Shown here: piece after piece, positions 7,181-36,955 of the stretch
Layout: every line of letters starts with the position of its first letter
Numbering within the stretch: the first letter of the stretch is position 1
Virus record (IMG/VR): IMGVR_UViG_2513237361_000013
From: a virus
Taxonomy: Duplodnaviria > Heunggongvirae > Uroviricota > Caudoviricetes
Strand: one strand, 5' to 3'
Length of the DNA stretch: 36,955 bases
Translations under genes and position numbers: made by a program
Notes under the pieces: generated by a model
Databases searched by the model: none
Seen by the model: only the letters and a program-made list of their open reading frames with translations
What the model was told of the DNA's origin: nothing

Positions 7181-7205
7181 GTGCCCGAATTTGGGGTTTT
7201 AAAAT

Positions 7206-8816: not shown

Positions 8817-9935
8817 TTACACTGAACAGAAACACAGCCCGTACCGGTAAATTCTGCCTGACGTCCGGACAACGACTGGCACTGAAGCGTCTTTCTGAGA
8901 GAGGAAGAGATCGTCCCCTGAACCTGAAACAAAGTGAGCGGGGGCTGTACTGGCATTATGCCCGGCTGGCAGAGAATGTGGGCGTCAGGGATTTCAGGAT
9001 GCTGTTGATGACCGGGCTGGACCGGGAGGTTCATAAAATGGAAGACCGACAGTATGGACAGTGATTTTTTATCCGCAGAGAGACAGATGCATGCGTTCAG
9101 TAAGGGGAGCGTGGACCGTATTTTCTGTTGCTCTGTTGTTGTCTCTGACGAAAAAAACTCTGAACCGTGCGGTGATAGGGCGGGCTTTCGGAAGTTAAAG
9201 CTATGCTGCCTCGTGATTTCCGGTTTGCAGTGAACGTGACGATGGCCCTGCTGTCTGGATGTGATGGTACAACAACTATTTTACATGGGGAGTCAGACTG
9301 AAAGGATACTGAACCAGTTGATTGATACCGGTGCTGGATTTGACCAGGATGATTCTGGATCCGGATATTCTGTGTTGTTGTTCCTGAAGTGCTTCCCGAA
9401 CAGTTATATAAAAATGGACAACAGTTTCACACAGGGCATTCTGAATAAAGATACACCCTGGTTGTTGTCGGACTGGCAGAGATGCAGGGTGTTACTATGG
9501 TAGGTGAAAGTGCGAAAATACAGGAATCAGTGAATTGTTTGTGTTTTCTGAAGGGAGATTGTCTGCAGGAATTTGAGAGAAGTCCGGAGAGGGGGAGTCC
9601 ATTTTGTTGTAAATATAATTAAAGTCGATCATGTAATTAGTTGGTTATTGCTGAAAAAACGAAACTTGGTGTGTCTGGGTGATTCTTTGATTGCTATCAG
9701 TTAGTGTCATTTTTTCAAAAAAATATGAATTCATGTTGGCCGGGGCATAACGATAATATCCGGAGGCAGTGATGTAATCTTTGACGAGTGCATACATCAG
9801 GTTGTGTAAAATTGACAGAAAGATCGTTTGTTATACATGCCAGTCAGCACTCCTGATAATCCACTGACGTTGTTAGCGGATGATTTCTTACTGTGATAAA
9901 GTAAAATCAATTTTATTCTAAGGAGGAGCACTGGC

Positions 9936-20053: not shown

Positions 20054-20515
20054 CTATGGCTTTTTTATCGTATCCTGCTTCTGCTGCTCTTTACCCTGGG
20101 CGATGCTGGCTGCTTCTGCAAGGATCTGCCAGTACAAATCTGGATTCTGCTTAAGCAGCGCGATCCCTCGTTCTGCCGTATATTCCAGTGCAACCTCAAC
20201 ACCATTAACCAGTTCACCAACCCCTTTCCAGTCTTTCAGCAGATAACGAGCGGCATTATCAATGAGTAAATCATCAACAGAATCCACCTCGGAAACCTTT
20301 GAAATATCAAACTCCTTCGTTCCGACGTGCAAACTGGCATCCATTTTCTCAATGTGGCGACGGATTAATGCATTACGGGAGCGATACTGATCGTTATCGC
20401 TGCTTGCCACCAACAGTTTTAACCCGTCTACAGGTTTTAAGTCCTTCATTGGCGTAAACCAGCGTTCTCCACCAATGAGAATTTTCTGATTAAGAATAAA
20501 CATCCATAACCTCAT
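20054..20515 (-). CDS. tail assembly chaperone (gpG-like)
   Basis: 153 aa, acidic, in the position between the major tail protein and the tape measure. An A-AAA-AAG heptamer lies immediately before its stop. Confidence 0.6.
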   Translation of the reverse strand: MRLWMFILNQKILIGGERWFTPMKDLKPVDGLKLLVASSDNDQYRSRNALIRRHIEKMDASLHVGTKEFDISKVSEVDSVDDLLIDNAARYLLKDWKGVGELVNGVEVALEYTAERGIALLKQNPDLYWQILAEAASIAQGKEQQKQDTIKKP

Positions 20516-20563
20516 TCAATGCGTCCCCCTGTAGGGCAGTACCACAGGAGGAATAACGGAAAA

Positions 20564-21526
20564 TCAACTAATCGCCTCAGCACTGGCTTTTGCGATCACG
20601 GCAGCCGGGGAATTTTTTTTTCTGGTTATCGTAGGTGCTTCATCTGCTGCGGTAATGCTCAATTGAACCTGGATAATGTCGCTATTACCCCCATCAGGCC
20701 ATTCACCTGACACCTGAACCTTCGGGAAACTGAAAGTGTATGCCCCCTCTCCATTCGAAAGCGTGAAGCTGAACGGAACTGTTTCTCCAGTCAGTGTTTT
20801 ACTCCAGATTTCCCACGCGGCTTTAGACCATGAAAGCGTCACCGTACCGGACGGTGTAAAAGTAGTCGGAATATTTGCTCCTGCATAAGGCGAGCCAGTC
20901 CCGATACAACGCTGTGTCTGGAGTTTGTTATCGAACTGAATATCAAAACTGTCGATACAAAAACCGTTACCTCCGGCAACACCATTCAGGCTTACTGCTG
21001 AAACCTCCTTAAACGAATAACGTAGCTTTCCTGCACTATCCACAGGTTCGCCTTTGATAAAATTCGTATCATCGGCCTTTGATTCCCAGTCCAGTCCGGC
21101 AAAGGTTACGGTCGCTGTAATATCGCCGTCGTTAGGGATCTGCATTTTCCATGAGCCAACCTGCGCTCCTCTGACGACAGAGGCAATTCCGACATCGGAC
21201 GCATAGGTCGCCAGAGAAAATGTTATTCGCTCATTCCCCATTGTCAGAGAATCGCCTGACCATTCCGCGCCGAAACAGGATGCAAGAAAATCATCATGTT
21301 GACCCCAGCGAAATTTGGTACCAACATCACCGCCGACATCCACAGTGCCAGGCGTCGCCCCCTGAGCCATCCGGGAGCCACCAATCTCATTATTTTCGCC
21401 TTTATTCTGGGTGGGTTTTACTCCCCAGCTTGTGCGTTTTAATAAACTCCAGTCACCACTTGCTGGCGTAGTGCCTGCAACCGTCTCCCGGATAAATGCC
21501 GAGATAACCTTTGCACCTGAACTCAC
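20564..21526 (-). CDS. major tail (tube) protein
   Basis: 320 aa, Gly/Thr/Ser-rich beta-type sequence in the conserved position. Confidence 0.7.
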   Translation of the reverse strand: MSSGAKVISAFIRETVAGTTPASGDWSLLKRTSWGVKPTQNKGENNEIGGSRMAQGATPGTVDVGGDVGTKFRWGQHDDFLASCFGAEWSGDSLTMGNERITFSLATYASDVGIASVVRGAQVGSWKMQIPNDGDITATVTFAGLDWESKADDTNFIKGEPVDSAGKLRYSFKEVSAVSLNGVAGGNGFCIDSFDIQFDNKLQTQRCIGTGSPYAGANIPTTFTPSGTVTLSWSKAAWEIWSKTLTGETVPFSFTLSNGEGAYTFSFPKVQVSGEWPDGGNSDIIQVQLSITAADEAPTITRKKNSPAAVIAKASAEAIS

Positions 21527-21552
21527 AGGAGCCTCCTATGTCATTAATTGCG

Positions 21553-21945
21553 CTAGAGCGCGCGATATGGAATTTGAAGATTAAGCTGGAACCAGCCATT
21601 CTTTTCGCCAACGGCTATTGAGGAAACAGCCTGGTAACTGAGACGATCGTCATCCTGAAACTCAAACAGTTCCCGCAATTTATCGGCTGTCTCAGTAATG
21701 AGTTTTGAACCAGAACCTGCGGGGACAAATAACTGAATAATGATTATCCCCGTGCGATAAACAACCGGCCCCGCGCCAATTTCATTAACTCCAGCCTGCC
21801 CGGGAATATTACTTAACCGCGCCCAGATTAACTTACCGGAAGGATCGAACGTTGGCCCGTTCGGATACAATACATCTTTTCCATCAATAATCGTCTGTGC
21901 CGTCATTCTGGAAATAACCGTATTTCTGATTTCAGTAAACTTCAT
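21553..21945 (-). CDS. tail terminator/completion protein (gpU-like)
   Basis: 130 aa, assigned by position and size. Confidence 0.55.
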   Translation of the reverse strand: MKFTEIRNTVISRMTAQTIIDGKDVLYPNGPTFDPSGKLIWARLSNIPGQAGVNEIGAGPVVYRTGIIIIQLFVPAGSGSKLITETADKLRELFEFQDDDRLSYQAVSSIAVGEKNGWFQLNLQIPYRAL

Positions 21946-22322
21946 TTGTAAGCCTGTAAAACACCATGAAAAGCGTTGGCATACACGCCAGTTGGCGCTT
22001 GTTGTGAATGACCGTTTTCAAGAGCCTCTGCATAAGGAAGGTTATTCTGGATATAAATAACCCCGTAATTTGCAGCTTTCGAAATAACCCCGATCCCACG
22101 CTGAACAGCAATCGTACCATTCGGATCCACGTTATCAGATATACCAAAATCGGGATGCTGTAACGACACCAGGTTGTTATTTCTGAAACGTCCGGTATCA
22201 ACCGGAGCAGCAATATCAATAACAGTAAGAATCTGCATAGCGATGTAGCGAATCTTCAGCCCTACATCTTCCTCAATCATCCCGGCAAATATTGACGGTT
22301 CTATATCCCATGCCTTTGCCAT
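21942..22322 (-). CDS. head-tail joining protein (HK97 gp10-like)
   Basis: 126 aa; overlaps the downstream gene by 4 nt and abuts the upstream gene. Assigned by position. Confidence 0.55.
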   Translation of the reverse strand: MAKAWDIEPSIFAGMIEEDVGLKIRYIAMQILTVIDIAAPVDTGRFRNNNLVSLQHPDFGISDNVDPNGTIAVQRGIGVISKAANYGVIYIQNNLPYAEALENGHSQQAPTGVYANAFHGVLQAYK

Positions 22323-23102
22323 TTACGCTCTCCTTAACTGGATAGAGTAAACTGATGCTGAAGGATCTACACTTGCTGTAATTACCTCGTATCGTTGTAA
22401 CTGCCTTGATACAGGATCATAAATCTCAATAATATGGTCGACAGCTGGTTTATCCGTAACCTCGCATACCAGAGCGGTTAATTTAAGGTCACCATGCAAA
22501 ATATTAATCCCATCAATTCTGCCCAGCTTATAACGTGTCAACACGCCTCGCCCGGTATAGATTGCGGTGGATTCGCCGCCAGTTTCCGTCACAGGATCCC
22601 AGTGCCGGTGCGTAACGTAAGAACCAGAAAAATCACTCACGGCGTCCGCTAAATCCTCATCAAAAGCAGCGGCAACCTCTGACTGAATCTCTTCACGAAG
22701 CCCCATTATCCCCCCCCTCACAACCCTGACTTGTGAGCGACTAAGTCCGTACGGTTTCAGCAGTGCTATCGCAAGCTGTAAATCGGGTTCAAGCAATGCA
22801 GTGCTGTTTGCTGGCAACTCAGAAAATGATTTCGATACACTGACCCCGTCAGCCGACACGGCTTTACTGATAACAACGCCAGAATCATTTTTCTGCTGAA
22901 ACAACTTACCGAATGAGGCAATTCTGGCTGCATATGCTCCCGCAAGTTTTACCTCTTCCGGAATACGGGATGGGTTAATTTTCAGGTTGAAGCCATTAAG
23001 CCAGGCATTAGCCATTAAAACAGCTTTATTTTTAGCGTTCTCACTCGTCCAGGCGTTCCCAAACGCATTATCAACGTCATCACAGGTCACGTAAGTGATC
23101 AT
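22323..23102 (-). CDS. head-tail connector/adaptor protein (two-domain)
   Basis: 259 aa; the N-terminal part resembles gp6-like connector proteins. Lies between capsid and tail genes. Confidence 0.6.
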   Translation of the reverse strand: MITYVTCDDVDNAFGNAWTSENAKNKAVLMANAWLNGFNLKINPSRIPEEVKLAGAYAARIASFGKLFQQKNDSGVVISKAVSADGVSVSKSFSELPANSTALLEPDLQLAIALLKPYGLSRSQVRVVRGGIMGLREEIQSEVAAAFDEDLADAVSDFSGSYVTHRHWDPVTETGGESTAIYTGRGVLTRYKLGRIDGINILHGDLKLTALVCEVTDKPAVDHIIEIYDPVSRQLQRYEVITASVDPSASVYSIQLRRA

Positions 23103-23105
23103 GTG

Positions 23106-23282
23106 TTACTCCTGAGTTTTCCAGCCCATAGCCTTCCAGTTGTCAACTTCATCAGGATGAACATTAGCGATAGTTGGTGCGCCGGGAAACATCTGATAAT
23201 CGGTCACCATAACCACTAACTCAATTTGCGTTTTTTGTGCGGCTTCACGCTGTGCTCTTTGCTCTTTAGTTAATCCGGCCAT
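23106..23282 (-). CDS. small hypothetical protein (possible head accessory)
   Basis: 58-codon ORF not in the supplied track (MAGLTKEQRAQREAAQKTQIELVVMVTDYQ...), with GGGGGG 3 nt upstream of the ATG. It fills the gap between capsid and connector genes. Confidence 0.3.
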   Translation of the reverse strand: MAGLTKEQRAQREAAQKTQIELVVMVTDYQMFPGAPTIANVHPDEVDNWKAMGWKTQE

Positions 23283-23292
23283 ATGCCCCCCA

Positions 23293-23314
23293 TTAAAAAT
23301 GGGGCCGAAGCCCC
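23293..23314 (-). terminator. intrinsic terminator downstream of major capsid gene
   Basis: GGGGC / GCCCC stem (23301-23314) with a 4-nt loop, followed on the minus strand by ATTTTTAAT, 11 nt after the capsid stop. Confidence 0.5.
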
Positions 23315-23324
23315 GTTTGAATGT

Positions 23325-24464
23325 TTAACCAAGAATCAGACAACCATGTGCCGGCTTCACTGATGAAACACCCCATGCCAGTCCAACTTCATAGCGCACC
23401 TGGCGATACTGACGATACAGTGCAATCTGGAACGTAATCCCTGAAATCGGGTCCGTAACATTCATTACATCATCAGCATTATCGCCACCTTCCGGCATTG
23501 CCGGAGTACGGGATGCCAGCAGAAACGCGTTGCGATCAAACGCCATATTTGCAGTAAAGGCCCCAACAACTGTGATGGCAGTATCATCGGCCAGATCCTG
23601 ACGCAGTCCGGGCGCTGCAAGAGTAATCAGATTGCTGGTCGCTGCTGCCACAACATACTGATTCGGATCACCAGCGAACGTAACAATCTGACCTGCAGAA
23701 ATACTCCCCGAACCAGTATCAATGGAAATAAGAACATCGCCTTCTTTTTTCTCTCCATTCACGAGATAACCAGTTGCAGCAACCTTTGGCGCTCGTTTCA
23801 CACCTGCCGAACTGTGAATATTGAATCCCTCCAGACGCCCCAACACGCCCTCACGCAGTAGCTGTTCAGTGCCGGATTCATTCACTTTAAACAATACAGA
23901 CTGTTTTCCGCGCAAATTAGCAATGGCAGTGGAGCCAAGCACCATCTGCAGATCGGTTGTCGGTGCGCCGTTATCCTCCAGAACCTGACGAGCCAGAGCA
24001 GCATCAGAAAGATCATCTTTAACACCAAACGGCGTTGTCCCTGCGGTTCCCACGGCGCGGGAAGCACCGAAATACAACGCACCAAGATCAGCCTCAACCT
24101 CGTTTGCAAGGGCGCGAAAAGCCTGCTTGAACTGATCAGCCAGAATGGTGTTGTAAGTCCCTGAAGGGCCAAGAGCCAGTTGTTCTTCACCATTCCATTT
24201 AACCGGTGCCATTTTGGATTTAGTAATTTTTACATCAACAGTGCCAATATTTTGATCACCGGTATTCGGAGCTGACGGCCCCGGTACGATATCTTCGGTT
24301 TTCGCCTCAGGCGCAACTGGCGCGGTTACCGTCTGATCTTTTGCTGCGGCGTCAGCTTTTGCGTTTTTTGCTACCGCAGGGATAAAACCTACCTGCTCAC
24401 GGGATACAACATCCAGGGCGGTATAAATAGTCGGGATCAACCCGGTCAGGGTATTTCCAGCCAT
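23325..24464 (-). CDS. major capsid protein
   Basis: ORF 23325..24557; preferred start is ATG 24462-24464 (MAGNTLTGLIP) with AAGGA upstream. Assigned by size and position between scaffold and connector. Confidence 0.8.
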   Translation of the reverse strand: MAGNTLTGLIPTIYTALDVVSREQVGFIPAVAKNAKADAAAKDQTVTAPVAPEAKTEDIVPGPSAPNTGDQNIGTVDVKITKSKMAPVKWNGEEQLALGPSGTYNTILADQFKQAFRALANEVEADLGALYFGASRAVGTAGTTPFGVKDDLSDAALARQVLEDNGAPTTDLQMVLGSTAIANLRGKQSVLFKVNESGTEQLLREGVLGRLEGFNIHSSAGVKRAPKVAATGYLVNGEKKEGDVLISIDTGSGSISAGQIVTFAGDPNQYVVAAATSNLITLAAPGLRQDLADDTAITVVGAFTANMAFDRNAFLLASRTPAMPEGGDNADDVMNVTDPISGITFQIALYRQYRQVRYEVGLAWGVSSVKPAHGCLILG

Positions 24465-24562
24465 AATTAAATATTCCTTAAAAATTTGCGTAATTGTGAA
24501 TAGATGGAGTAATGAGCTATCCAGCCCTGACACCAGCTCCCATCCGGAAGCTGACAAATGTG

Positions 24563-25399
24563 TTAATCAACGATTGTGATACCGTCTTTCAATGCGTTTT
24601 GCTTACCTGCAACATCCAGTGCATCAAAAGCAGAGCGTTTCATCGTTTTCTGACCAATATCATGCTGTGTCGGACGGGAGCCGCCGCCATTGTTGCCACT
24701 GGCTTTCAGGATGTAGTCTTTCTGAGGGTAATTTTCGACAAGGAACTCCAGCGCCTCATCAAACTGCGCCAGTTCGCCAGGCTTCGCGCGGGAATAAATT
24801 TTGTTGCCGGAAGCGTCATAAGCAACGATCCTCCCTTCTTCCACTTTGAATGCCTGCCCGAAGCGGGCTTGTAATAAATCTGCCGGGATCGCAATTTTAT
24901 CGGCAATATATTTTGAACCCGCAAAACTACCGCCAATCATAGAATCGTAAAGCTGCTTCTCCAGCATCTGAGAGCGTTGCTTTTCTTCATCTAATTGCTG
25001 CTGAAAATTTTTCGTAATTTCTGCCTTAACCTGGTCAACCTGTCCCGCATCGAGCAGCTTTTTCTGGTCGATTTTTGACAGCATTTCCAGTGCCTCGATC
25101 GCCTTCTTCGGGTCTTCGATAGCGGCAAACTTAGCCAGTTTTTCCTCTGCAGCTTCTTTAGCCAGGCGATGATTTTTTGCCTCGCCATTAAGCTCTGTAA
25201 TTTTTTTTGTCGCCAGCGGTGCATCGAAGCCAATTTCTTTACCATCGTCGTGCACATAAACTGGCAGGCCAGCAGTATCAATTTCTGCGTATTGTTTTCC
25301 GTTAATCTCGACCGTTTTCAGTTTCATATTAGTACCTGGTTTAAGTCTTCCGACAGTTACGCTGCTCACCATCCGGATCGCAGCAATAAAAAAGGCCAC
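24563..25399 (-). CDS. capsid scaffolding protein (start uncertain, possibly ATG at 25327)
   Basis: Coiled-coil, charged sequence (EAKNHRLAKEAAEEKLAKFAAIEDPKKAIEALEMLSKIDQKKL) immediately upstream of the capsid gene. Confidence 0.6.
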   Translation of the reverse strand: MAFFIAAIRMVSSVTVGRLKPGTNMKLKTVEINGKQYAEIDTAGLPVYVHDDGKEIGFDAPLATKKITELNGEAKNHRLAKEAAEEKLAKFAAIEDPKKAIEALEMLSKIDQKKLLDAGQVDQVKAEITKNFQQQLDEEKQRSQMLEKQLYDSMIGGSFAGSKYIADKIAIPADLLQARFGQAFKVEEGRIVAYDASGNKIYSRAKPGELAQFDEALEFLVENYPQKDYILKASGNNGGGSRPTQHDIGQKTMKRSAFDALDVAGKQNALKDGITIVD

Positions 25400-25431
25400 C
25401 CGAAGGTAGCCTGTTGTAATAAATGATTTAT

Positions 25432-26547
25432 TTAAATCCCTGCTTTTCTGAATACCTGTGCATCACGCTCACGGAGCTGCTTCAGCGTCAGCCATTCGCC
25501 TTTATCGGTGTAAAATTCATCTGGCGACATACCACCATCCCGAATCAGCTTTGCTCGGGTTTCCCCCACAATCTGTTTTTGTCTGGTGTAAGGCTGACGC
25601 AAAAACCATTCCCTGTAGGTTGTATCTCCGGCCACCACGCCATCCATGCTGGCCCGCTCAGCCGGGGAAATATCGCGAACATCAATACCCAGTTCCTTCG
25701 CTGATTTCAGAATGAACGTTTCCGTTGAGCGGCAGCAGAAATGAATTTTTCCCGGCCCCTGCAAATAAGGCACGCTGTGATCTACAGGTTTATTATTCAG
25801 CGTATATTTGAGGCGATCCCTGATTCGACATTGTGGCGTAGTACGATTATCAAGCGTTGATAACCATTGCTTACCCTTAATCAAATCATTATTCGCGCTG
25901 GCAAAACTCTCACGGGCAGTAGCAGCAAGATGTCCAACCGCTGTTTTTGCAATGCTGGCCGCATTAGCCCGGCTCATCTGCAATGCACCATCCTGAAATC
26001 CCTTACTGACATGTCCCCGAATTTTTCTTGCGATCTGCTCATTGGTATCCCCCAGCAAAAAACCCTGACGCACTGTATTTGTTATGCGTCTGAGCCGATC
26101 CGCCTCAAGATCTGAGGCCCACTCACTGAGCAGTCGTCCCTGGAATGGTCGCGCCATTGCAGCGGCATAAAGTGCATCAGGAGAGATACCAACCAGAGGG
26201 TGAACATCAGCAACAAAATCAGGTAGCATAGAATCAAACAGACTTAACTGATAACCAGCCTCATAAATTGCCAGCTCGTTCAGCTCTCCGGAGAGACTGG
26301 TAAACATGCTGTTAATAGCAGTGCGGTTAACCTTTCTGACGCTCGCCAGAAGTGACTCCAGGCGCTTAACGGTAAAATTACCTGGATCGAGGCTGTCCAG
26401 TGCTATCAGCAGGCGAGCAGTAAGTTCCGCATCGCTGTCATTCAGTATTTTCACCATTCTGGCAGCCACGCCAGTGCTATAGCGGGATATCCAGACTGCA
26501 TGAGCAATTGATTCATCACGCAGCCGTTCATTCACGGTTTGCATCAT
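25432..26547 (-). CDS. head morphogenesis protein (SPP1 gp7 / Mu F-like minor capsid protein)
   Basis: 371 aa immediately after the portal gene, overlapping it by 20 nt. Assigned by position and family resemblance. Confidence 0.75.
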   Translation of the reverse strand: MMQTVNERLRDESIAHAVWISRYSTGVAARMVKILNDSDAELTARLLIALDSLDPGNFTVKRLESLLASVRKVNRTAINSMFTSLSGELNELAIYEAGYQLSLFDSMLPDFVADVHPLVGISPDALYAAAMARPFQGRLLSEWASDLEADRLRRITNTVRQGFLLGDTNEQIARKIRGHVSKGFQDGALQMSRANAASIAKTAVGHLAATARESFASANNDLIKGKQWLSTLDNRTTPQCRIRDRLKYTLNNKPVDHSVPYLQGPGKIHFCCRSTETFILKSAKELGIDVRDISPAERASMDGVVAGDTTYREWFLRQPYTRQKQIVGETRAKLIRDGGMSPDEFYTDKGEWLTLKQLRERDAQVFRKAGI

Positions 26548-27934
26548 TGATTTCCATCAGCATTACACTCTGATTTTTTAATTCATCGATCACTTCCTCT
26601 GGACGGGAATCCTGATCGATAAATTTCAACGCCTGCAACACCCGAACCGCATCAATCTGACGTATATCACCGCCCTGACGCAATGACTGAACAGCCAGCG
26701 CGGAGGATGAGTCAAACACCTGGGCAGATACATCCAGTTCAGTGCGCACATCCACATTGCCACCGCAACTCTCTCCGATCCATTCCGCCATTATCTGGAG
26801 AATATTATCGAGGGCATCTTCGAGGGAGTTCGCCATTGTATAAAGCGGCGAGTTTTCCTGCATTCGCTCTTCATTAGTCTGATCAACAGATTTGGTGGAT
26901 GTATTTTCAGCACGCAGAAGTTTAGCGCCGGCATGACGCATCTGATTTTCCAGCTTCTCAAGTGATGTTTCGCCAGATTCTATCGCTGCGCCACTATGTT
27001 CAACATATTCGAGGCCATTTTTTGTTCTGTCCTCAAAAATCGTAGCGGTGGATGCACCAACCGTCAGTTCTTCATTCCTGTCCAGCCCGTAGGCCACCAG
27101 CAATGGAACGCGGGTAACATGAAGAATATTGTCCTGCTCGCTCTGGCTTTGCCAGTGCTTGATATTCAGCAAGCCAAGATTAAGCAATGGCGGTGTACCA
27201 CGCATAAATCCTGTTTTCTTCGTGTACAGTGTTACCAGAGGAATATCATCACGGCTGGTATTCCATGACTCATGAAGCGTCCAGACAGATTCGCCATTAG
27301 TGCCTTCGCTACGTCGATAAATTTCAACTCGACGGGGCATAATATGGCGGATCTGCTCCACCTTCTTCTGCCCGAAATCATCACCATCAATAATGATGAC
27401 CTCTTTTATACGCAAATCAGTGAGAACAACTTTCCCTTTTTCAACTTTCGATTTCCATCCAATAACCTGGCGTGGATTCAGCATCGTAACGTACGGACGA
27501 CCACCGGTCGCGTTTTCATCGGCTTTTGTCCGAATCTCTTTCATATCCGTTCGTGGATAGTCCACCAGCGCATGTGCCACACCATACTGAAATGCGAGGC
27601 TGAAAAATTGCTGCGCCCACACATCCAGTCGGCTCCCCTCCATGTCGATATTTTCTGCATATTCCCTGATTTTTGCCGGCGTTTCCTCACTCAATACTGT
27701 CGGCTCTGCAAATATGCGCCCAATATTTTGCTTGATGCTTTCTTCATACACAGGAAGTAGCGTAGCCACAGACAGGCGTTTTTTATAAGCGTCTTCATCT
27801 TCGTTAGGCCATTTTGGGAGATAATTTTCCCCCTGCCTGCGCATTTCAAGCGTACCGCCCATCAGTGCGTCGTTAATATCCCACGCCTCCAGCATATCGT
27901 TATAGTCGAGGTTGGGTGTTGATATATCAGCCAT
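26528..27934 (-). CDS. portal protein
   Basis: 468 aa directly downstream of the large terminase, with an acidic C-terminus. Confidence 0.85.
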   Translation of the reverse strand: MADISTPNLDYNDMLEAWDINDALMGGTLEMRRQGENYLPKWPNEDEDAYKKRLSVATLLPVYEESIKQNIGRIFAEPTVLSEETPAKIREYAENIDMEGSRLDVWAQQFFSLAFQYGVAHALVDYPRTDMKEIRTKADENATGGRPYVTMLNPRQVIGWKSKVEKGKVVLTDLRIKEVIIIDGDDFGQKKVEQIRHIMPRRVEIYRRSEGTNGESVWTLHESWNTSRDDIPLVTLYTKKTGFMRGTPPLLNLGLLNIKHWQSQSEQDNILHVTRVPLLVAYGLDRNEELTVGASTATIFEDRTKNGLEYVEHSGAAIESGETSLEKLENQMRHAGAKLLRAENTSTKSVDQTNEERMQENSPLYTMANSLEDALDNILQIMAEWIGESCGGNVDVRTELDVSAQVFDSSSALAVQSLRQGGDIRQIDAVRVLQALKFIDQDSRPEEVIDELKNQSVMLMEINDANRE

Positions 27935-27936
27935 AA

Positions 27937-29247
27937 TTAAATCCGAAGTGATGTGACTCTTCCGGTCGGTTTGACAATAGGGAATTGCTTAACGATGAAA
28001 TAACCTCCGGCATCATTCGGGTGATCATTGCCAGATTTTTTATCAGGCTCCCCCTTCTCATCCCAGACCTGTTGCTCCAGAGATTCGGCATATAACGGGC
28101 AACGCTTCACATTAACTTTATAGCGACGCTCACCATTGGCATTGCAGAACATTGCATTCATTGAGTTAACGCGATCTTTTACTGGCGGGTTCGAGCTGTT
28201 CACCACAACGTTAAAACCAGCCTGCTTAAGCTGGGCTATATCCGTCGTACTTGCGTTACTTGATTTTCTGGAATCCCCGGAAGCATCTGGATAAATATAA
28301 ATTTCCCTCACTTTCCGGTAATCATTCCCATCATACAGCCAGAAGCGTTCTTTAATGATGCGGATCATATCCGGCGTATCGTAGGCATTGATGATTTCAG
28401 TTACCGCACATGGAAGCCCCAAACGCAGCACATGGACGATTCCCGCCATCTTTCCAACGTTAAAATCCATCCCAATATAAATCGGCTCCCCTGGCTGCTC
28501 CACTTCTTCGCAATTATTCAGTTTCCGGTCAAACTGATGGTAAACAGTACCACTTGTCAGGTTAGTAAACTGTCCTCGAAGATAGGCTTTAATCAGCTCT
28601 GGAGGGTATGATTCAAGAAGCGAAGGAATGTAATCTGCTGGCAGGTTCTTTTCATTATCGAAAGTAGATGCCTGCACCAGACCATACAGTGAGGCCAGCT
28701 CTGTTTTTTCACGCACGGCTTTAACAAACTGCTCGTAGACAAATTTGAATCCTTCCGGCGTGGTTGTAACGTCAATACCGTTGCGAAGTCCATCAATCTT
28801 ATAACGCATACGTGCAATTATCTTGCGCCACGCCGTTCTGGCTTTTTCCTTCGGCAAAATGTCCAGTTCATCCACCAACGCATTACCAATTTTGAAACCG
28901 ACGATCGTTTGTGGCTTCTCCATCGATCTGCAGATAGTGGTTCCCCGATACTGGCGTCCGTAATAAAAGTGAACCTCTTTATTTCCCTCATTAATTTTTA
29001 CGTTCAATCCCCAGTCAGCAGCAACTTCTTCCACTGTAGGGTAAAAAATATCGCGAATTTGGGGATACGTTGGCGCAAAATATCCCTGATTTATACCTGG
29101 ATGCTCCCAAATCCCCTTGCATATGCCGCCACACCCAACCCATGTTTTGCCCGAGCCAAAACCAGCAATATAGGCTTTAAATTTATGGGGCATTGAAAGA
29201 AATCGCGCCTGAGGCACATTAAGCGTCGGAGAGATCATCTTCATCAC
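27937..29247 (-). CDS. terminase large subunit
   Basis: 436 aa with Walker A-like GFGSGKT near the N-terminus and a nuclease-type C-terminal region. Confidence 0.9.
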   Translation of the reverse strand: MMKMISPTLNVPQARFLSMPHKFKAYIAGFGSGKTWVGCGGICKGIWEHPGINQGYFAPTYPQIRDIFYPTVEEVAADWGLNVKINEGNKEVHFYYGRQYRGTTICRSMEKPQTIVGFKIGNALVDELDILPKEKARTAWRKIIARMRYKIDGLRNGIDVTTTPEGFKFVYEQFVKAVREKTELASLYGLVQASTFDNEKNLPADYIPSLLESYPPELIKAYLRGQFTNLTSGTVYHQFDRKLNNCEEVEQPGEPIYIGMDFNVGKMAGIVHVLRLGLPCAVTEIINAYDTPDMIRIIKERFWLYDGNDYRKVREIYIYPDASGDSRKSSNASTTDIAQLKQAGFNVVVNSSNPPVKDRVNSMNAMFCNANGERRYKVNVKRCPLYAESLEQQVWDEKGEPDKKSGNDHPNDAGGYFIVKQFPIVKPTGRVTSLRI

Positions 29248-30313
29248 TCCTTACTCTGGCATCAACCACATTAATATTGATCGCCACAGGCTGGGGATGT
29301 TCATTATCTTCCACCGTTTCGATCTCTTTGCGCAGCTTCTGGTTTTCCATTCTGCGCCGTTCAATTTCCAGTTCCTGTAGCCGTTTATCTGCACATAAAG
29401 CCCCGCCAGCAGAAAACAAACGCAACAATTCACGCCGGGCGGCAGCCTTATCCTCCAGCAGGATCTCAACGCCGAATTTTCCGAATTTTGCCCCTGCATA
29501 TAATTGCCGCGCATCCCCATCAAGCAGAGTGGTATCAGCCATATAAAGCTGTCCCGTTCCCTCACCGCAGCACTTCGGGCAGTCCGGATTGGGTATGGCG
29601 TTATCAACAAAGCCGAGGCCTCCATATTCCGGTTCGGGTTTGCCATCTCTGGAAGCCTGCGCCGCTGCCTTGTCGAATTCTGCTATATCGCGCCACTGGT
29701 AGAGATGATTCTCGCCCCAGCAATAACGGCAGTTAACACGGCGAAATTGTGCAAGCTGATTGGGGTCGGCCAGGACAATAGCCATCAACTGACTCACTAG
29801 TAAATCCAGGTCTGCGGTATAGCGTTTCTGGTACTGATTGCGGAAGTAGCTGATAGCGCGAAAAACCCTGGCATTTCTAAGCATACGACTGGCGTTGCTG
29901 TTAGCTGTCGCACCTTGCCCCTCATAACCGGCTAGTCGGTACGCCTCTGTCGGCTTTTTACCCTGAGCAACAAGCATCGCAAACTTAGCCTGCTGGTCAG
30001 AAATGCCGAATTCATCGGGACAGAACGAAAATTCCTCCGCGTCGCCCTCATTCAGGCCCGCATCGAATACTGGCTTTTTTTCCTGAGATTTTTCGTTCCG
30101 CTTTTGTGCAGTCTGCGCAGATTTTTTCTGCGCACTTTTTTGCGCAGTTTTGCACATTTCTGTCTGCGCATTTTTCGGAGTTTTTTTGATGTAACGACGG
30201 GCTGTTGCGTAATTCAGTCCCCTTGCTTCACACCATGCCACCGGAGATATACCGGAGCGGGTGTATTCAGCAATATACTCCTGCTGCAACGCCCCCCAGT
30301 CCGGTCTGCTCAT
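29219..30313 (-). CDS. terminase small subunit (P27-family-like) with N-terminal HTH and two CxxC motifs
   Basis: 364 aa. Core resembles P27-type TerS (QQAKFAMLVAQGKKPTEAYRLAGYEG...ANSNASRMLRNARV). N-terminal HTH-like VAWCEARGLNYATARRYI. CRYC and CPKCC motifs. Overlaps TerL start by 29 nt. Confidence 0.8.
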   Translation of the reverse strand: MSRPDWGALQQEYIAEYTRSGISPVAWCEARGLNYATARRYIKKTPKNAQTEMCKTAQKSAQKKSAQTAQKRNEKSQEKKPVFDAGLNEGDAEEFSFCPDEFGISDQQAKFAMLVAQGKKPTEAYRLAGYEGQGATANSNASRMLRNARVFRAISYFRNQYQKRYTADLDLLVSQLMAIVLADPNQLAQFRRVNCRYCWGENHLYQWRDIAEFDKAAAQASRDGKPEPEYGGLGFVDNAIPNPDCPKCCGEGTGQLYMADTTLLDGDARQLYAGAKFGKFGVEILLEDKAAARRELLRLFSAGGALCADKRLQELEIERRRMENQKLRKEIETVEDNEHPQPVAININVVDARVRSDEDDLSDA

Positions 30314-30316
30314 CAG

Positions 30317-30568
30317 TTAGTCCTGATTTTTATCCACCCTGAGTAGTTCGCGCAGAGCAAAGGCATCCCCTTTTCTGGCAAGCTTAAACAATGCCGCTCG
30401 TAACTCGGCTTCACCTTTCGCTCTGCCCTTACGGATGGCCGCATAAAAATCTGTCATTGCTTCCCGATTTTCTTTCAGTCGGTTCAGATCAACATCCAGA
30501 ACGTCAGCGATTTGTTGTGCAGTCATCCGGCACGCTGCCAGAGACTCGACTTTCGAATACGGAATCAT
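30317..30568 (-). CDS. small putative DNA-binding protein
   Basis: 83 aa, basic and helical (AAIRKGRAKGEAELRAALFKLARKGDAFALRELL), 3 nt upstream of TerS. Overlaps the upstream gene by 65 nt in another frame. Confidence 0.45.
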   Translation of the reverse strand: MIPYSKVESLAACRMTAQQIADVLDVDLNRLKENREAMTDFYAAIRKGRAKGEAELRAALFKLARKGDAFALRELLRVDKNQD

Positions 30569-31436
30569 TTGTCACCCCCATTGATATGCAGGGTGTCTTC
30601 TTCCTGTATTTTTCGTGAAGGATTTTTACTGCAGCGTTGTTCCAGGTGACCTGATGGTGAATGCGTTTATGGCTGGCACCCATCAGTGAGATTTTTACGC
30701 ACGACGGCGCATACATGACGGAGTAAAAACTTTTAACGTAGGTTCCGGAATCCAGATACAGCTCGGTCATTCCGCCGCTGTTTTTCTGCGTCTGTTTCTG
30801 CCCTAACTGGACAGCACCGATCGTCATAAACAATTCACCACAGCGACCGAGATTCGTGTACGTATTCACATCCTCGTTAATGCGCCCCATGAATGAGAAC
30901 GGTCGATCAACCGAACAGATAAAGCTGTTCATTGCCTTGCGTTTCACCCACGAAGCATGGCCGCCATTGTCACCAAGAAAATCCCCGCCCTGCGACATAG
31001 CGATGGAAAGAGCAGGTATTGATTCGTAGTACGCCAGCATTTCAGAAAGGATCGCATCCAGTTTCCTTATCGGAAAATAGGCCTGGTCATAGTTGCGATC
31101 CACCCGAAACTGGAACTCGTGATAATCATCATCGAGCTGAATGAAGTATTTACACCCGACCAGTTTTGCCAGGTCGAAACAGGCATTACGGGCGTAAAAA
31201 ATTGAGCGGCGGTCACAGAAATTATCGGCTTCGTCAAAACGACTGGCGATATCGGCTTTGGAAAACACCAGCACCTGTTCACCAAATTCAGCCATGTACT
31301 GATGCCGTGTCTTATCTTCATCATCAACAACGATAAAAATTTTCCCGGTATAGCCAGCACGACGCAACGTCCGGTAAGTCAGAACTTTGTCCGGTCGCCC
31401 GTGAGTCAGAATAAAGGCGCAAAAATCATCACGCAT
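30504..31436 (-). CDS. GT-A-fold glycosyltransferase-like protein (putative), translationally coupled to ParB-like gene
   Basis: Start at ATG 31434-31436 (MRDDFCAFILTHGRPDK), overlapping the ParB-like stop by 8 nt with GAGGAGGAGGAA as Shine-Dalgarno. Motifs FIVVDDEDK and IQLDDDYHEF (DxD-like). No transmembrane segment. Confidence 0.55.
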   Translation of the reverse strand: MRDDFCAFILTHGRPDKVLTYRTLRRAGYTGKIFIVVDDEDKTRHQYMAEFGEQVLVFSKADIASRFDEADNFCDRRSIFYARNACFDLAKLVGCKYFIQLDDDYHEFQFRVDRNYDQAYFPIRKLDAILSEMLAYYESIPALSIAMSQGGDFLGDNGGHASWVKRKAMNSFICSVDRPFSFMGRINEDVNTYTNLGRCGELFMTIGAVQLGQKQTQKNSGGMTELYLDSGTYVKSFYSVMYAPSCVKISLMGASHKRIHHQVTWNNAAVKILHEKYRKKTPCISMGVTNDSVFESRVSGSVPDDCTTNR

Positions 31437-32220
31437 ATTCCTCCTCCTCACCACCATGCATGATCTCCACCATGCGCTGCGTCATCCGGACAAATCCATT
31501 TTCAATAGCCTGCTGATAATCAATGATCACCAGCGCCGACTCCTCGAAAAAACACTGAATTTCAGAGGGGGCGTGAGCGTAATAGTCCGCAATTCTGCTG
31601 AAATTAAACACCGTGTGACGTTCTGCCGCACACAGGAGGAATTTCTCAATATCAGGCTCAAGGGACGCCGAACGTATCCGGCTGATCAGCTCCTGAGTTT
31701 TCGTATCGTCGTACAGTTCACTGATATCCGGTTTACCGCCCGACGGCTCATAAACAGGCGTATCAATTTTCGTCGTATACGGCTCCTCCTCATTTCCTGT
31801 ACCGGGCAAAACATCCGTCAACAGTTCATCAATTTCTGTCGGGATGAAGCCTGTCAGGGAGACATCAAAATCAGCATTGATTAGGTCCGACAGCTCCATC
31901 CGCAACAGATCTTCATCCCAGCCAGCATTCATCGGCAGGCGATTATCTGCCAGGCGGTACGCCTTTTTCTGCTCATCCGTCAGGCCAGACAGAACAATGA
32001 CCGGAACAGAATCCATTTTGAGCATTTCAGCCGCCATAACACGACCGTGACCCGCAATAATTTCGCCCTTTTCGTCAATCAGCACCGGATTAGTCCAGCC
32101 GAATTGCTTAATACTTTCTACCAGTTGTGCCACCTGCTCAGTACTGTGCGTCCTGGCGTTGTGCGCATACGGTGACAATTCTTGTAATGGGCGATAGACT
32201 ATCTTTAATTTCTCGCTCAT
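31429..32220 (-). CDS. ParB N-terminal-domain (ParB/Srx-fold) protein, phage-type
   Basis: 263 aa with YRPLQELSPYAHNARTHS...ESIKQFGWTNPVLID...IIAGHGRVMAA, typical of the ParB N-terminal nuclease/NTPase fold. Confidence 0.85.
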   Translation of the reverse strand: MSEKLKIVYRPLQELSPYAHNARTHSTEQVAQLVESIKQFGWTNPVLIDEKGEIIAGHGRVMAAEMLKMDSVPVIVLSGLTDEQKKAYRLADNRLPMNAGWDEDLLRMELSDLINADFDVSLTGFIPTEIDELLTDVLPGTGNEEEPYTTKIDTPVYEPSGGKPDISELYDDTKTQELISRIRSASLEPDIEKFLLCAAERHTVFNFSRIADYYAHAPSEIQCFFEESALVIIDYQQAIENGFVRMTQRMVEIMHGGEEEEYA

Positions 32221-32357
32221 ACAGCCTTGCTTTATGAATAAAACGCACCCCAGCAGCCAGTGCTACTGGGGACGGAGGTGTTGCTGGTAAAGTTAGGTAT
32301 TGGATCAATGAGTGAGTCAACATAATATTAAACTCACAATTATAAATCAGCCATATA

Positions 32358-33814
32358 TTAGGAGCGCCAAAAAAAACCTGAAAACAATATAATAACAGGA
32401 TAAATTTCAAGGCGACCAAGAATCATAGCTATGCACATTAAACATTTTGCAATGTCATTAAGTACTCCGAATGACGATGCAGTAGCCCCAAAACCTAATC
32501 CCATATTATTAATACATGCAGCCACTGTTGCAAATGATGTAAGAAAATCATATCCCATACCATTTAACACCAGTATAAAAAACACCGTAAAGAGAGTATA
32601 AAGAAAAAAGAAACTCCATACAGACCTCATTACACGATCTGTAACTATCTTCCCTCCTACATTTACACTCAACAACGCTCTGGGATGAGAAAGCTGATTT
32701 ATCTCGTGTTTGCTTTGTTTGAAAAGTATAAGAAATCGAAGTGACTTAATTCCACCACAAGTTGAACCTATACATCCCCCAAAGAAACTTGACAACAGCA
32801 AAAATACTATCGTGTGCGTGGGCCAACTTGCATAATCCTGCGTAGCTAAACCATTATCAGTGAGCATGGAGCTGGCAAGAAAAAACGAATGAATAAAACT
32901 TCCATGCAAGTCATACATACCTATATGCCAGACCTGGAAAGAGGTAACAATGATCACCCCTAAGGCTATTAACAGAAAGAAACGAAGTTCAATATCTCTG
33001 ATTAAAGGTTTTATCGTTTTCCTGCTAATAACAATATACCAAAGAGTGAAGTTGAAAGCCGATAGCAGGGAAAAAGAACCAGCCACCAGCTCAACCAAAT
33101 AGTTATTAAAATATCCGATACTCTCGCTATGAGTTGAGAAACCACCAAGCGAAACTGTGGAAATCCCGTGACAAATAGCATCAAACAAAGGCATTCCTGC
33201 AAGTCTATAACAGACAATACAAGCAATACCTAATAAAGAATAAGTTATCCACAGTGTCCGTGACGTATCGGCCAGGCGGGGAGTGAGTTTGTCATCCTTA
33301 AATGGCCCCGGCATTTCTGACTGATAAAGCTTTGCACCACCAATACCCAATAATGGCAATACAGCAACCGCCAGAACAATAACTCCTAAACCACCTATAA
33401 AATTTAACTGTGACCGATAGTACAAATATGCCCGAGGTAATGAACTAACATCATCAATTACAGTTGCTCCTGTTGTTGTTATTCCAGAAACCCCTTCAAA
33501 CAGAGCATCAATGAACGTTAAATTAAGTTCTGAGTCAATCCATAAAGGGAATGCACTAATAACAGAAAACAAAATCCAAAACATTACAATTATAATAAAC
33601 CCATCACGGGTACGTAATTGAATGCCAGATTTCTTAGTTGTATACCACGCTCCGCCACCAATGCAAAAAAAATAACGAAAGTTATAAAGAAAACGAACAG
33701 GCTTTTTTCTTTATAAAACAATGCTACAACCATTGGTGGCAACATTGAAAGACTATAGAGCCAAACCAGGAACCCACACATATGAGTAACAACTCTTACA
33801 TGAGATGTATTCAT
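32358..33814 (-). pseudogene. trkG: Trk potassium uptake protein TrkG (TrkH family), interrupted by -1 frameshift
   Basis: N-terminal ORF (33590..33832, MNTSHVRVVTHMCGFLVWLYSLSMLPP) and C-terminal ORF (32358..33584) are joined if the 8-A run at 33665-33672 had 9 bases; the alternate frame reads CIGGGAWYTTKKSGIQLRTRDGFIIIVMFWILF into the downstream ORF. AT-rich moron, as in the Rac prophage. Confidence 0.85.
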
Positions 33815-33951
33815 ATCTAAATATTCTTTCAATTATAACCACCTTGCTGCAATATTATGATTATACTGTATAAAATTTAACTCCTCTTAGATCTTACTTC
33901 ACTGTTCCTTATGAAACAATCATCAAAATGAATCATATTGTAGTTAAGATT

Positions 33952-34380
33952 TTACTTTAAACACTGCTCGGTTATGTATTGCTGAGCACCTTCAAGTTGG
34001 GCCTGCATCATTACCAGTCGTTCCCGGAGGGTGAAATAATCCCGTTCAGCGGTGTCTGCCAGTCGGGGGGAGGCTGCATTATCCACGCCGGAGGCGGTGG
34101 TGGCTTCACGCACTGACTGACAGACTGCTTTGATGTGCAACCGACGACGACCAGCGGCAACATCATCACGCAGAGCATCATTTTCAGCTTTCGCATCAGC
34201 TAACTCCTTCGTGTATTTTGCATCGAGCGCAGCAACATCACGCTGACGCATCTGCATGTCAGTAATTGCCGCGTTCGCCAGCTTCAGTTCTCTGGCATTT
34301 TTGTCGCGCTGTTCTTTGTAGGCGATGGCGTTATCACGGTAATGATTAACACCCCATGACAGGCAGACGACCGGTTCCAT
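33952..34380 (-). pseudogene. Rz: Rz i-spanin, N-terminally truncated (transmembrane segment and RBS lost)
   Basis: 142 aa, near-identical from memory to lambda Rz from CLSW(A/G)VNHYRDNA onward, but beginning MEPVV in place of the N-terminal transmembrane segment. No Shine-Dalgarno upstream. Confidence 0.7.
34011..34196 (-). CDS. Rz1: Rz1 o-spanin lipoprotein (embedded in Rz, alternative frame)
   Basis: 61 aa with lipobox VVGC and proline-rich [15 protein letters not shown], nested in the Rz frame. Confidence 0.85.
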
Positions 34381-34405
34381 TCAACAGTCATAAGGAGTTT
34401 CATTT

Positions 34406-34636
34406 ATGACAGTCAGTATTGTTTCACCTTCCGCAGCGACTGTAAAGCCCCGCCGTCATCCCCGTTTCAGACGCGAAGACATCCCCGCGCCGGAAATTGA
34501 CCCCGTACTGAAAGCCTTCGGGCGACACATAGCCCGGAGTTTTCACCGGGGGCGTGGTGTACACATCCCCGCCATGAAAAACACGGCCTTCGGGCAGGTG
34601 CTCCGCACACTCGAACTGAAACGCGCTTTTAACTGA
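34406..34636 (+). CDS. small basic hypothetical protein (first gene of plus-strand operon)
   Basis: 76 aa with AAGGAG 8 nt upstream of the ATG. Shares an IPxPEIDPVLK motif with the small ORF at 19748..20002. Confidence 0.5.
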   Translation: MTVSIVSPSAATVKPRRHPRFRREDIPAPEIDPVLKAFGRHIARSFHRGRGVHIPAMKNTAFGQVLRTLELKRAFN

Positions 34637-34687
34637 TGAGGTGAGCCGCCCCGCGAGGGGCGGCAACAGACGGAAGGAGAACATTTT

Positions 34688-36049
34688 ATGACATTAGCAG
34701 CAATCACCATGACCGCCCCGGAAGCCGCCAGTCCTGTGCAGATGTACCGCGCGACCTACTCACCGGATGATAACAAACTGCGCCTGTATGCCGCGTCACG
34801 TCTTGACCAGGAAACGTATAAAAAAGTGCATGATGCCGGTTTCCGCTGGGCACCCAAACAGGCGCTGTTTGTCGCGCCGGCCTGGACACCGGGCCGGGAA
34901 GACGTGCTCCTCTCACTTGCCGGAGAGATTGAGGATGAAGACAGCACGCTCGCTGAACGTCAGGAAGCACGGGCGGAGCGGTTTACCGGATACAGCGGAA
35001 AGCGGGCCAGTGAATCCGCACAGGCACTTGATGAAGTGGAAAGACTGGCCGCGATGATCCCGCCCGGTCAACCCATTCTTGTGGGGCATCACAGCGAACG
35101 CCGCGCCCGTCGTGATGCGCAGCGTATTGAAAACGGCATGAAACGTGCCGTGATGCTCTTTGAACGTGCGGAATACTGGGAAGAACGCGCGCGGTCGGCA
35201 CTGCTTCACGCGAAGTATAAAGAACGTCCGGACGTTCGCTGGCGTCGTATCAAAAAAATCGAAGCTGATTTGCGCAAGGCTGAAAAGACCATCGCACAGT
35301 CGCAGAAATATCTGACGATGTGGCGGGCTGAATCGCTGGATCTGAATATGGCAAAACTCATCAGCAGTCATGACCATATCAGCGCCTGTTTCCCGCTGGA
35401 TACGTATCCGCGCCCGGCAGAAAAAAGCCAGTATGAAGGAAGTCGATCGTTATGGTCGGCCCTGGATGATGACATCATCACCACGGAGCAGGCCCGCGAA
35501 ATTGCGATCCGCTGTCATGAACGGCAGATCCAGCGTCAGCAACGCTGGGTTAACCACTATCAGAACCGCCTGATCTATGAGCGTGCCATGCTGGACGAAA
35601 GCGGCGGCGTGGTTACCCGGACACAGGATTTTGAGCCGGGCGGACAGGTTTTCAGCCGGGGCGAGTGGCTGACCATCATCCGTGTGAACAAAAGCAACGG
35701 GGCGGTGAGTTCAGTCACAACGCCAAATTACAGTTTTCTCGGGTACAGCGGCACGATGAAAGTGACGCCCGATCGCATCACGGACTACAAAGCACCATCG
35801 GCAGAAGAGGCTGCCGTCGCCAGTCAGGCCGCGAAGCGTCCGCCGGTAGTCAACTATCCGGGGGAAGGTTTCCGGGAAATGACAAAGGCACAGTGGGCCG
35901 CCCTGCCCCGGGACTGTAAGGCCGTGCGCAGTGTGGCAGAAGCAGAAGACCACGGGGCATACCGCTACCGCCGCACAATGGACAATAATTTCCGCCTGGT
36001 GAATGTGTATATCACCGACATGAAAATCACGGAAATCCCACAGAAATAA
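34688..36049 (+). CDS. large conserved hypothetical protein (plasmid/phage-associated, DUF3560-like by recollection)
   Basis: 453-aa GC-rich ORF with a coherent charged/helical sequence and no internal stops. The family assignment is from memory only. Confidence 0.65.
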   Translation: MTLAAITMTAPEAASPVQMYRATYSPDDNKLRLYAASRLDQETYKKVHDAGFRWAPKQALFVAPAWTPGREDVLLSLAGEIEDEDSTLAERQEARAERFTGYSGKRASESAQALDEVERLAAMIPPGQPILVGHHSERRARRDAQRIENGMKRAVMLFERAEYWEERARSALLHAKYKERPDVRWRRIKKIEADLRKAEKTIAQSQKYLTMWRAESLDLNMAKLISSHDHISACFPLDTYPRPAEKSQYEGSRSLWSALDDDIITTEQAREIAIRCHERQIQRQQRWVNHYQNRLIYERAMLDESGGVVTRTQDFEPGGQVFSRGEWLTIIRVNKSNGAVSSVTTPNYSFLGYSGTMKVTPDRITDYKAPSAEEAAVASQAAKRPPVVNYPGEGFREMTKAQWAALPRDCKAVRSVAEAEDHGAYRYRRTMDNNFRLVNVYITDMKITEIPQK

Positions 36050-36096
36050 GGTATATCCCCCCGGGAAAATCCCCGGGGGATGACGGAGATAATGAC

Positions 36097-36660
36097 ATGC
36101 ACAGTCAGTTAAGAGAACGTATCCGGCTGATGCGCGCAAGGCTGGATAACGCCGCGCCGGTTGCTGAAATCCGGGCTGAATCTCAGCTTTTTGTGACTCC
36201 TGCCCCGGTCTGTGATCGCCTGGTGACGCTGGCGGAGATCAGCAACCGTGATCACATTCTGGAACCCTCTGCCGGCACCGGGGCCATACTGCGGGCGATT
36301 CGGGATACCGCACCGGGGGCCATGTGTGATGCGGTGGAGATTAACAGCGGGCTGGTCCGGTATCTGCGGGACAATTTTAACGGTGTCAGGGTACAGTGTT
36401 GCGACTTCATGGAATGGCAGCCGGTGCAGTATTACAGCCGGATTATCATGAATCCGCCGTTCAGTCACGGGCAGGATATCCGGCATATCCTGCGGGCTTT
36501 TTCCCTGTTGCGTCCGGGGGGCGTGCTGGTTGCCGTCTGTCTGAACGGGCCGCGCCAGCAGGAGAAGCTGTTACCGTTTTCTGACGTCCGCGAGGAGCTG
36601 CCACGCGGCACGTTTGCTTATACCAGTGTTCCGACGATGATTATTCGTCTGCGTGCCTGA
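36097..36660 (+). CDS. small class I SAM-dependent methyltransferase with NPPF motif
   Basis: 187 aa with motif I LEPSAGTGA and motif IV NPPF, typical of amino-group (N6-A/N4-C or RsmD-like) methyltransferases. Confidence 0.8.
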   Translation: MHSQLRERIRLMRARLDNAAPVAEIRAESQLFVTPAPVCDRLVTLAEISNRDHILEPSAGTGAILRAIRDTAPGAMCDAVEINSGLVRYLRDNFNGVRVQCCDFMEWQPVQYYSRIIMNPPFSHGQDIRHILRAFSLLRPGGVLVAVCLNGPRQQEKLLPFSDVREELPRGTFAYTSVPTMIIRLRA

Positions 36661-36666
36661 TGACGC

Positions 36667-36700
36667 CGGGCAGGCGGGAGGATAAATGCCCGTCTGCCCG
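36667..36700 (+). other. GC-rich 12-bp-stem hairpin immediately after methyltransferase stop
   Basis: CGGGCAGGCGGG (36667-36678) pairs with CCCGTCTGCCCG (36689-36700) with one mismatch and a 10-nt loop. No U-run follows. Confidence 0.4.
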
Positions 36701-36789
36701 CGCCGGGAAAAACCGCGCGCCGGTGGCGCTGAAAGGGGCCGCGCTGACGCGCCGCCCCTTCCATTACGCGGATATTCTGATGGGGACTT

Positions 36790-36932
36790 CTGTCTTTTCA
36801 GACCTGTCATTTGTCTGTTACTGATGATGTTGTTGTTCCTGCTACTGCTACTGTTCTTCTTTTTTCTGATGCTCTCATTACTGTTTGTTTTGTTGTTCTC
36901 CTGCTTATGCCTTTTCCGGGCGCTCTTTAAAA
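36790..36932 (+). repeat. A-poor (CTG/TTG/TTC)n-like low-complexity tract
   Basis: About 140 nt almost devoid of A on the plus strand. It reads as Leu/Phe/Met codon repeats in the frame of ORF 36686..36955. Confidence 0.5.
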
Positions 36933-36955
36933 ATCTGGATCAAGCTGAAAATTGA

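Follow-up and report, generated by a model that had tools for sequence, protein, structure and literature searches.

A one-base deficit splits the prophage gene trkG in a draft genome of Escherichia marmotae and is probably an indel error of the draft

The Trk potassium transporter gene trkG is carried by Rac-type prophages, and its product is an accessory transporter – weaker than TrkH and down-regulated by H-NS (PMC9898762). The closest described counterparts of the locus considered here are trkG in the Rac prophage of Escherichia coli K-12 and trkG in the Rac-like lambdoid prophages of strains SE11 and E275a. We analyzed trkG within a 36,955-nucleotide virus record from IMG/VR (the whole of this stretch is hereafter 'the window'). 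Once its reading frame is restored, this trkG encodes the same protein as its counterparts, and it shares their position within the prophage and their low G+C content. It differs from them in being one base short, in having E. marmotae rather than E. coli as its host and in lying on a prophage segment that is cut at both ends.

Several described kinds of single-base change resemble this deficit. Homopolymer errors in early pyrosequencing and draft assemblies likewise take the form of single-base indels in or beside mononucleotide runs, with several per 20 kb, no accompanying substitutions and an essential gene broken – though in two of the events here a lone base is lost, which is not the same as miscounting a long run. 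The frameshifted trkG of E. coli NMBU_W05E18 is broken at the same tract (codons 48–51), but by a true homopolymer expansion (A7 to A8, with the neighboring T kept), whereas the window lacks the interrupting T. In the human DMD variant c.2281delG (A4GA5 to A9; PMC12946587), loss of an interrupting base fuses short runs into one that is capable of slippage, and the frame is restored; the apoB run of eight As, cited in PMC1088944, is likewise a slippage-supporting run. The likeness to DMD and apoB would hold only if the trkG deletion is real, and with eight bases the trkG run is barely long enough for E. coli RNA polymerase to slip on.

The split trkG gene and its prophage

The window contains a segment of a Rac-like lambdoid prophage (positions 15286–34371, minus strand) that extends from the tail gene L to a truncated Rz, and each of its cut ends falls within a gene of which lambdoid prophages usually supply several copies. 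Within this segment trkG is cargo between the lysis and packaging modules, with the Rz lysis gene on one side and ParB-like and terminase genes on the other, and it has a G+C content of 38% versus 47.5% in the remaining prophage. The segment is 99.6–99.8% identical to prophages of many E. coli strains, whereas the neighboring host DNA (8690–15286) is only 88–93% identical to E. coli. Because the prophage is nearly identical to a copy from an unrelated sequencing run while its flanking host DNA reaches only this lower identity, the comparison points to a Rac-like phage having entered E. marmotae very recently. The host DNA also includes, at positions 11063–12927, a PAPS-reductase/DUF3440 gene followed by a 217-aa ORF, with about 90% identity to E. 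coli loci annotated as IbrA-like and IbrB-like.

trkG itself occupies positions 32358–33814 on the minus strand and measures 1457 nt, compared with 1458 nt for the intact gene. The reading frame is lost after residue 50, and two ORFs cover the gene. The N-terminal fragment (33590–33814, minus strand) starts at an ATG at 33814 and encodes 74 aa, comprising 50 native residues and 24 out-of-frame residues that end at a TAA; in the ORF listing it starts from a TTG at 33832 (33590–33832) and encodes 80 aa. The C-terminal ORF (32358–33584, minus strand; 408 aa) starts at native Met78, 5 bases past the TAA of the first fragment. A preliminary description of the window had counted eight A at plus-strand positions 33665–33672 and had proposed that the 80-aa and 408-aa ORFs belong to one TrkH-family protein. 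Direct reading of the sequence confirms exactly eight A, and the proposed join is borne out: when one base is added at this run, the product is a 485-aa protein identical (100%) to E. coli TrkG WP_001097895.1 from strain E275a.

Consistent with membership of the TrkH/TrkG family, the restored protein is similar to characterized members over its full length. Its residues 7–485 align with the Vibrio parahaemolyticus TrkH structures 3PJZ and 4J9U (E=1.2e-120), and PF02386 (TrkH) is among the precomputed Pfam matches of the 408-aa ORF. The deposited gene, in contrast, is interrupted between its 74-aa and 408-aa ORFs and so lacks a single frame for all membrane segments; this deposited frame break is probably an artefact. 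On our reading of the TrkH structure, the Met78 start falls past two TrkH-specific N-terminal helices, which are without counterpart in KtrB, and within the next helix. TrkG residue 83–84 marks the beginning of the alignment with KtrB. We considered whether translation could re-initiate at the ATG 5 nt past the TAA to give a 408-aa protein without the first two helices, and rejected this route on the grounds that the start lies within a transmembrane helix and is preceded by no evident ribosome-binding site. As a separate observation, the out-of-frame tail of the 74-aa fragment (33590–33664, minus strand) contains the sequence GIQLR, which is identical to native TrkG residues 64–68, encoded 27 nt further on; this repeat looks like a coincidence.

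The missing base and its distribution

The comparators read GCAAAAAAATATAAC on the plus strand at the trkG site (A7-T-A), which corresponds to GTT ATA TTT TTT TGC on the coding strand – an ATA followed by T7. The window instead reads GCAAAAAAAATAAC, an A8 run (33665–33672 on the plus strand; T8 on the coding strand) without the interrupting T, and the missing base falls between 33671 and 33672. The lost base is a single plus-strand T, which is the coding-strand A at nucleotide 144 of the CDS and the third base of the Ile48 codon ATA. Since this T separates A7 from A1 in the comparators, its loss leaves a run of eight.

These data revise the earlier view of the lesion as a 1-nt deficit in a homopolymer run, with nine A expected in an intact trkG. 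A deficit of one base is indeed present, but it does not lie within a pre-existing homopolymer, the comparators having A7-T-A and not A9. Although nine A would likewise put the gene back in frame and give the same TrkG protein, the 9-A (T9) allele was found in 0 of 1530 E. coli records, and A7-T-A is the expected true sequence. A two-step route, in which a synonymous ATA to ATT change gives T9 and slippage then yields T8, was dropped on the same count. Runs of A8 or T8 number 10 in the window, compared with 6.2 ± 3.3 in shuffles. Such a run is therefore not unusual as such; its location at the frame break of a conserved gene is the part that exceeds chance.

Allele counts in E. coli records were made with 90- and 91-nt queries across the tract. 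The window allele (90-nt query) had no exact match in 1530 complete E. coli records carrying the region, and the exact wild-type 91-mer was present in 827 of them. Among the other 703 records, 28 were sampled, and all but one had the same length with one mismatch. The wild-type length was found in 59 of 60 sampled complete genomes, and each of the 1555 E. coli records that contain trkG is one base longer than the window over its match. The window allele was also absent from GTDB representatives (one genome per species) and from JGI metagenome contigs; a gapped pattern recovered 72 loci from these two collections, of which 70 carried A7-T-A, one A8-T-A and one A7-TT-A. The window trkG allele is thus unique among more than 1,600 sequences. 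The preliminary description had pointed to trkG of other strains as a comparison, and the outcome is that nearly all of the others are one base longer, in the form A7-T-A, and that the window allele is private.

Other frameshifting alleles do occur at this tract. The finished genome NMBU_W05E18 (NZ_CP042878.1) carries A8-T-A, and its trkG is annotated as 'frameshifted'; a second complete genome, judged only from match length, probably also carries A8-T-A. The 74-aa product was called on 15 Logan contigs, which we considered as possible recurrences of the window allele and rejected: in all 10 of the contigs that were read the lesion is another one, A6-T-A, which happens to yield an identical translation. 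Several of these appear to be noisy assemblies because they contain further homopolymer indels in trkG. Based on the allele counts across these collections, the native T7 tract is a weak hot spot for change or error rather than a variable tract.

Independent copies of the prophage and the quality of the source record

We compared the window with independent copies of the prophage. Logan contig L102 (SRR3989615) aligns with window positions 15950–34371 over 18,425 columns (18.4 kb) with 0 mismatches and four one-base gaps, located at 19993/4, 20017, 22717 and, within trkG, 33671/2. An independent sequence of the same element thus differs from the window by indels only. A second copy, L098 (GCA_002965395.1), has the same four gaps together with six clustered SNPs. 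Indels account for about one tenth of spontaneous mutations in E. coli, so the probability that four of four differences are indels is approximately 1e-4. Four indels with zero substitutions between two copies of an element would not be the normal product of mutation. An earlier panel of seven complete genomes had given four private SNPs and two private deletions in the window; closer relatives share the SNPs, and only the indels remain. A substitution in the window's minor head protein was also considered as private and was ruled out, as it is present in other assemblies.

At 19993–19994, where a second one-base deficit is located, the window reads TTTTTCCGC and all comparators read TTTTTCTCGC; as in trkG, a lone base between two identical bases is lost, and every comparator disagrees with the window at both of these sites. 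The C5 run at 20013–20017 is C6 in the closest prophage copies (L102 and L098), and the C8 run at 22710–22717 is C7 in those copies and in the E. coli records read. The C5 at 20017 is not private to the window, being found in some members of the seven-genome panel, and the C8 allele has an exact match in 3 of 737 E. coli records (734 lack one), where PGAP annotates a partial pseudogene. Because these two alleles occur elsewhere, not every gap need be an error.

With respect to coding content, the additional C at 22710–22717 makes a single 259-aa ORF (22323–23102) out of two head-tail genes (131 and 127 aa). The deficits at 19993–19994 and 20013–20017 are 20 nt apart and lie between YdaY-like and tape-measure genes, where a 66-aa ORF becomes an 84-aa ORF; in lambdoid phages this interval usually holds the tail-chaperone frameshift region.

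Gaps are also seen in the first part of the window. Relative to window positions 1–8690, the assembly L097 (GCA_964257785.1) has homopolymer gaps at 3354, 7193 and 7503; its appY encodes 172 aa, compared with 249 aa for appY of the window, and its J has a shorter C-terminus. These three gaps seem better explained by errors in L097 than by errors in the window. Disagreement between two assemblies does not by itself identify the one that errs.

To locate the origin of the window we relied on the truncated Rz ORF that is specific to its junction. This ORF was found in one record only, GCA_000208565.2 AEME01000001.1, a 4.81-Mb 'contig' that is the draft of TW09308 – a Michigan freshwater strain of cryptic clade V, which is now Escherichia marmotae – and the sequence taken from that record (L101) is 100% identical to the window. 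The same record contains a frameshifted indispensable gene. About 10 kb beyond trkG, outside the window, alaS (positions 589–3220 of L090) is split into ORFs of 133 and 704 aa. Its DNA reads GAAAAATTGG, with one additional T, and the frame switches after ...LLTSEK, the next frame reading WFALPKERLWV.... With one T removed, the product and residues 1–202 of E. coli AlaRS (3HXU) form a gap-free alignment. Because no cell survives this lesion in essential alaS, AEME01000001.1 contains single-base indel errors.

Given the zero substitutions and four gaps relative to L102, the broken alaS and an allele found in none of the other sequences searched, we consider it very probable that the trkG frameshift is a base-calling or assembly indel error of the AEME01000001.1 draft and that trkG is intact in TW09308. 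The true TW09308 sequence would then be expected to read GCAAAAAAATATAAC and to encode an intact 485-aa TrkG. The five indels (a lone base lost between identical neighbors twice, C6 to C5, C7 to C8, and T to TT) all look like flows that 454-type pyrosequencing, a platform that we infer, has called too high or too low, and the trkG gap would belong to the same error class as the record's other single-base indels. Three origins had been offered for the split – a slippage-generated pseudogene, a phase-variable gene or a homopolymer sequencing error – and error is the one that the evidence supports best, while phase variation finds no support. Against an artefact, trkG is dispensable prophage cargo, so a real inactivating deletion would be tolerated, and finished genomes with a frameshifted trkG do exist, NMBU_W05E18 with its A8-T-A being an example.

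The joins in the window bear on the same record. The first (8690/8691) interrupts J, the second (15285/15286) lies where K meets L and the third (34371/34372) interrupts Rz; none has an N spacer, and J, K/L and Rz are usually common to several lambdoid prophages of one genome. The sequences L102, L098 and L001 all run on in Rz beyond 34371, where the window switches to plasmid-like DNA. L102 ends 30 nt beyond this position, as would be expected, in our reading, if its assembly graph had a repeat boundary there. The 34371 join is spanned by no E. coli record or chromosome and by no PLSDB plasmid. The DNA that abuts the truncated prophage Rz (34372–36955) is ~98% identical to a region of large conjugative E. 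coli and Klebsiella plasmids that encodes a DUF3560 protein and a SAM-methyltransferase, and it may be a plasmid contig placed within a chromosome record. The only tRNA genes adjoining csrA are one tRNA-Ser and one tRNA-Arg. Overall, AEME01000001.1 looks like a set of contigs concatenated end to end into a pseudo-chromosome.

AEME01000001.1 widely serves as the reference sequence of cryptic clade V and E. marmotae, and its single-base indels amount to roughly one per 5–10 kb in checkable stretches. Because of these indels and the spacerless joins, pseudogene counts, 'gene loss' calls and synteny drawn from this record are untrustworthy without re-sequencing. Caution about the quality of a commonly used reference record is thus the main use of the present result, which is of little biological consequence – a known gene, a known kind of prophage and a probable artefact.

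Alternative accounts of the frame break

The alternative that survives best is that a genuine single-base deletion of coding-strand A144, in the Ile48 codon ATA, inactivated trkG as a pseudogene after the Rac-like prophage had recently been acquired. Loss of the gene would be tolerated since trkH, kup and kdp, which are presumed present, would supply potassium uptake. The deletion is present in the deposited sequence, TrkG is an accessory transporter, weaker than TrkH and down-regulated by H-NS (PMC9898762), and other frameshifted alleles are on record – A8-T-A in NMBU_W05E18 and A6-T-A, with the same 74-aa product, in at least 10 Logan contigs. We nonetheless consider a genuine deletion unlikely, as the window differs from the otherwise identical prophage L102 by four indels and 0 substitutions, the record that contains it has a broken copy of essential alaS as well, none of the more than 1,600 other sequences shares the allele and no intermediate T9 allele was found in the 1530 E. 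coli records.

A genuine deletion would have a further consequence. Because it creates a T8 on the sense strand (U8 in the mRNA), the allele would be leaky: RNA polymerase could slip and insert one U, or the ribosome could slip by -1 on U_UUU_UUU, and either event would yield V-I-F-F-C-I-G-G, exactly as in wild-type TrkG. Consistent with such rescue, a T9 reading gives wild-type TrkG, and E. coli RNA polymerase has been found to rescue -1 gfp reporters containing a sense-strand T7 to ~5%, and those containing T8 to ~10%, of an in-frame control (PMC6260861). Slippage-prone runs for this polymerase are sense-strand T of at least 7–8 or A of at least 8–9 (PMC6260861), a range that includes the coding-strand T8 of the window trkG. 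No stable structure follows the run, since the 88 nt that begin with it do not outperform shuffles in folding (z = 0.34), and no Shine-Dalgarno-like stimulator was seen upstream by eye, so any ribosomal slip at T8 would be unprogrammed and weak. That the deletion is real and that TW09308 still makes a few percent of wild-type TrkG by U insertion or a -1 slip, trkG being in effect a natural frameshift allele that rescues itself in a horizontally acquired transporter gene, strikes us as a slim prospect. Were the deletion real, it would be one more ordinary inactivation of dispensable prophage cargo, the minor twist being that the lesion creates a slippage-capable run.

A second alternative is phase variation, with the tract as a reversible on/off switch of trkG driven by slipped-strand mispairing. 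In keeping with this idea, a mononucleotide tract is located early in the CDS (codons 48–51), and both T8 variants (NMBU_W05E18, probably the second complete genome and one metagenome contig) and T6 variants (the Logan contigs) are found, if rarely. Contingency loci, however, normally vary widely in tract length across strains, whereas the native trkG tract, of just 7 bases, hardly varies at all (A7-T-A at 70 of 72 loci; wild-type length in 59 of the 60 complete genomes sampled), which leaves phase variation unsupported. Moreover, the window allele arises by loss of a flanking base rather than by a change in the length of the native tract, so that no gain or loss of a repeat unit accompanies the change between on and off, and several of the variant Logan contigs are noisy, with further homopolymer indels in trkG. 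We therefore regard phase variation as very improbable.

The weakest alternative, a programmed recoding site at which frameshifting evolved for trkG expression, has next to no chance of being correct. U_UUU_UUU does have the formal heptamer pattern X_XXY_YYZ when read in the zero frame, and shifting by -1 there restores TrkG. But no other trkG has the two-frame arrangement (those examined are in one frame or have a different lesion), the closest prophage copy, L102, has an ordinary in-frame trkG, no stimulatory structure is found downstream of the heptamer, and the non-conservation of the shifted arrangement refutes recoding in practice. Conservation thus counts against both phase variation and programmed recoding, through the invariance of the tract in the one case and the lack of a two-frame arrangement elsewhere in the other.

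trkG also contains a native run of eight T on the coding strand near its 3' end (32369–32376), which is present in all comparators and is the site of indels in several of the noisy Logan contigs. If judged like the split site, this run is a potential transcriptional-slippage site of wild-type trkG.
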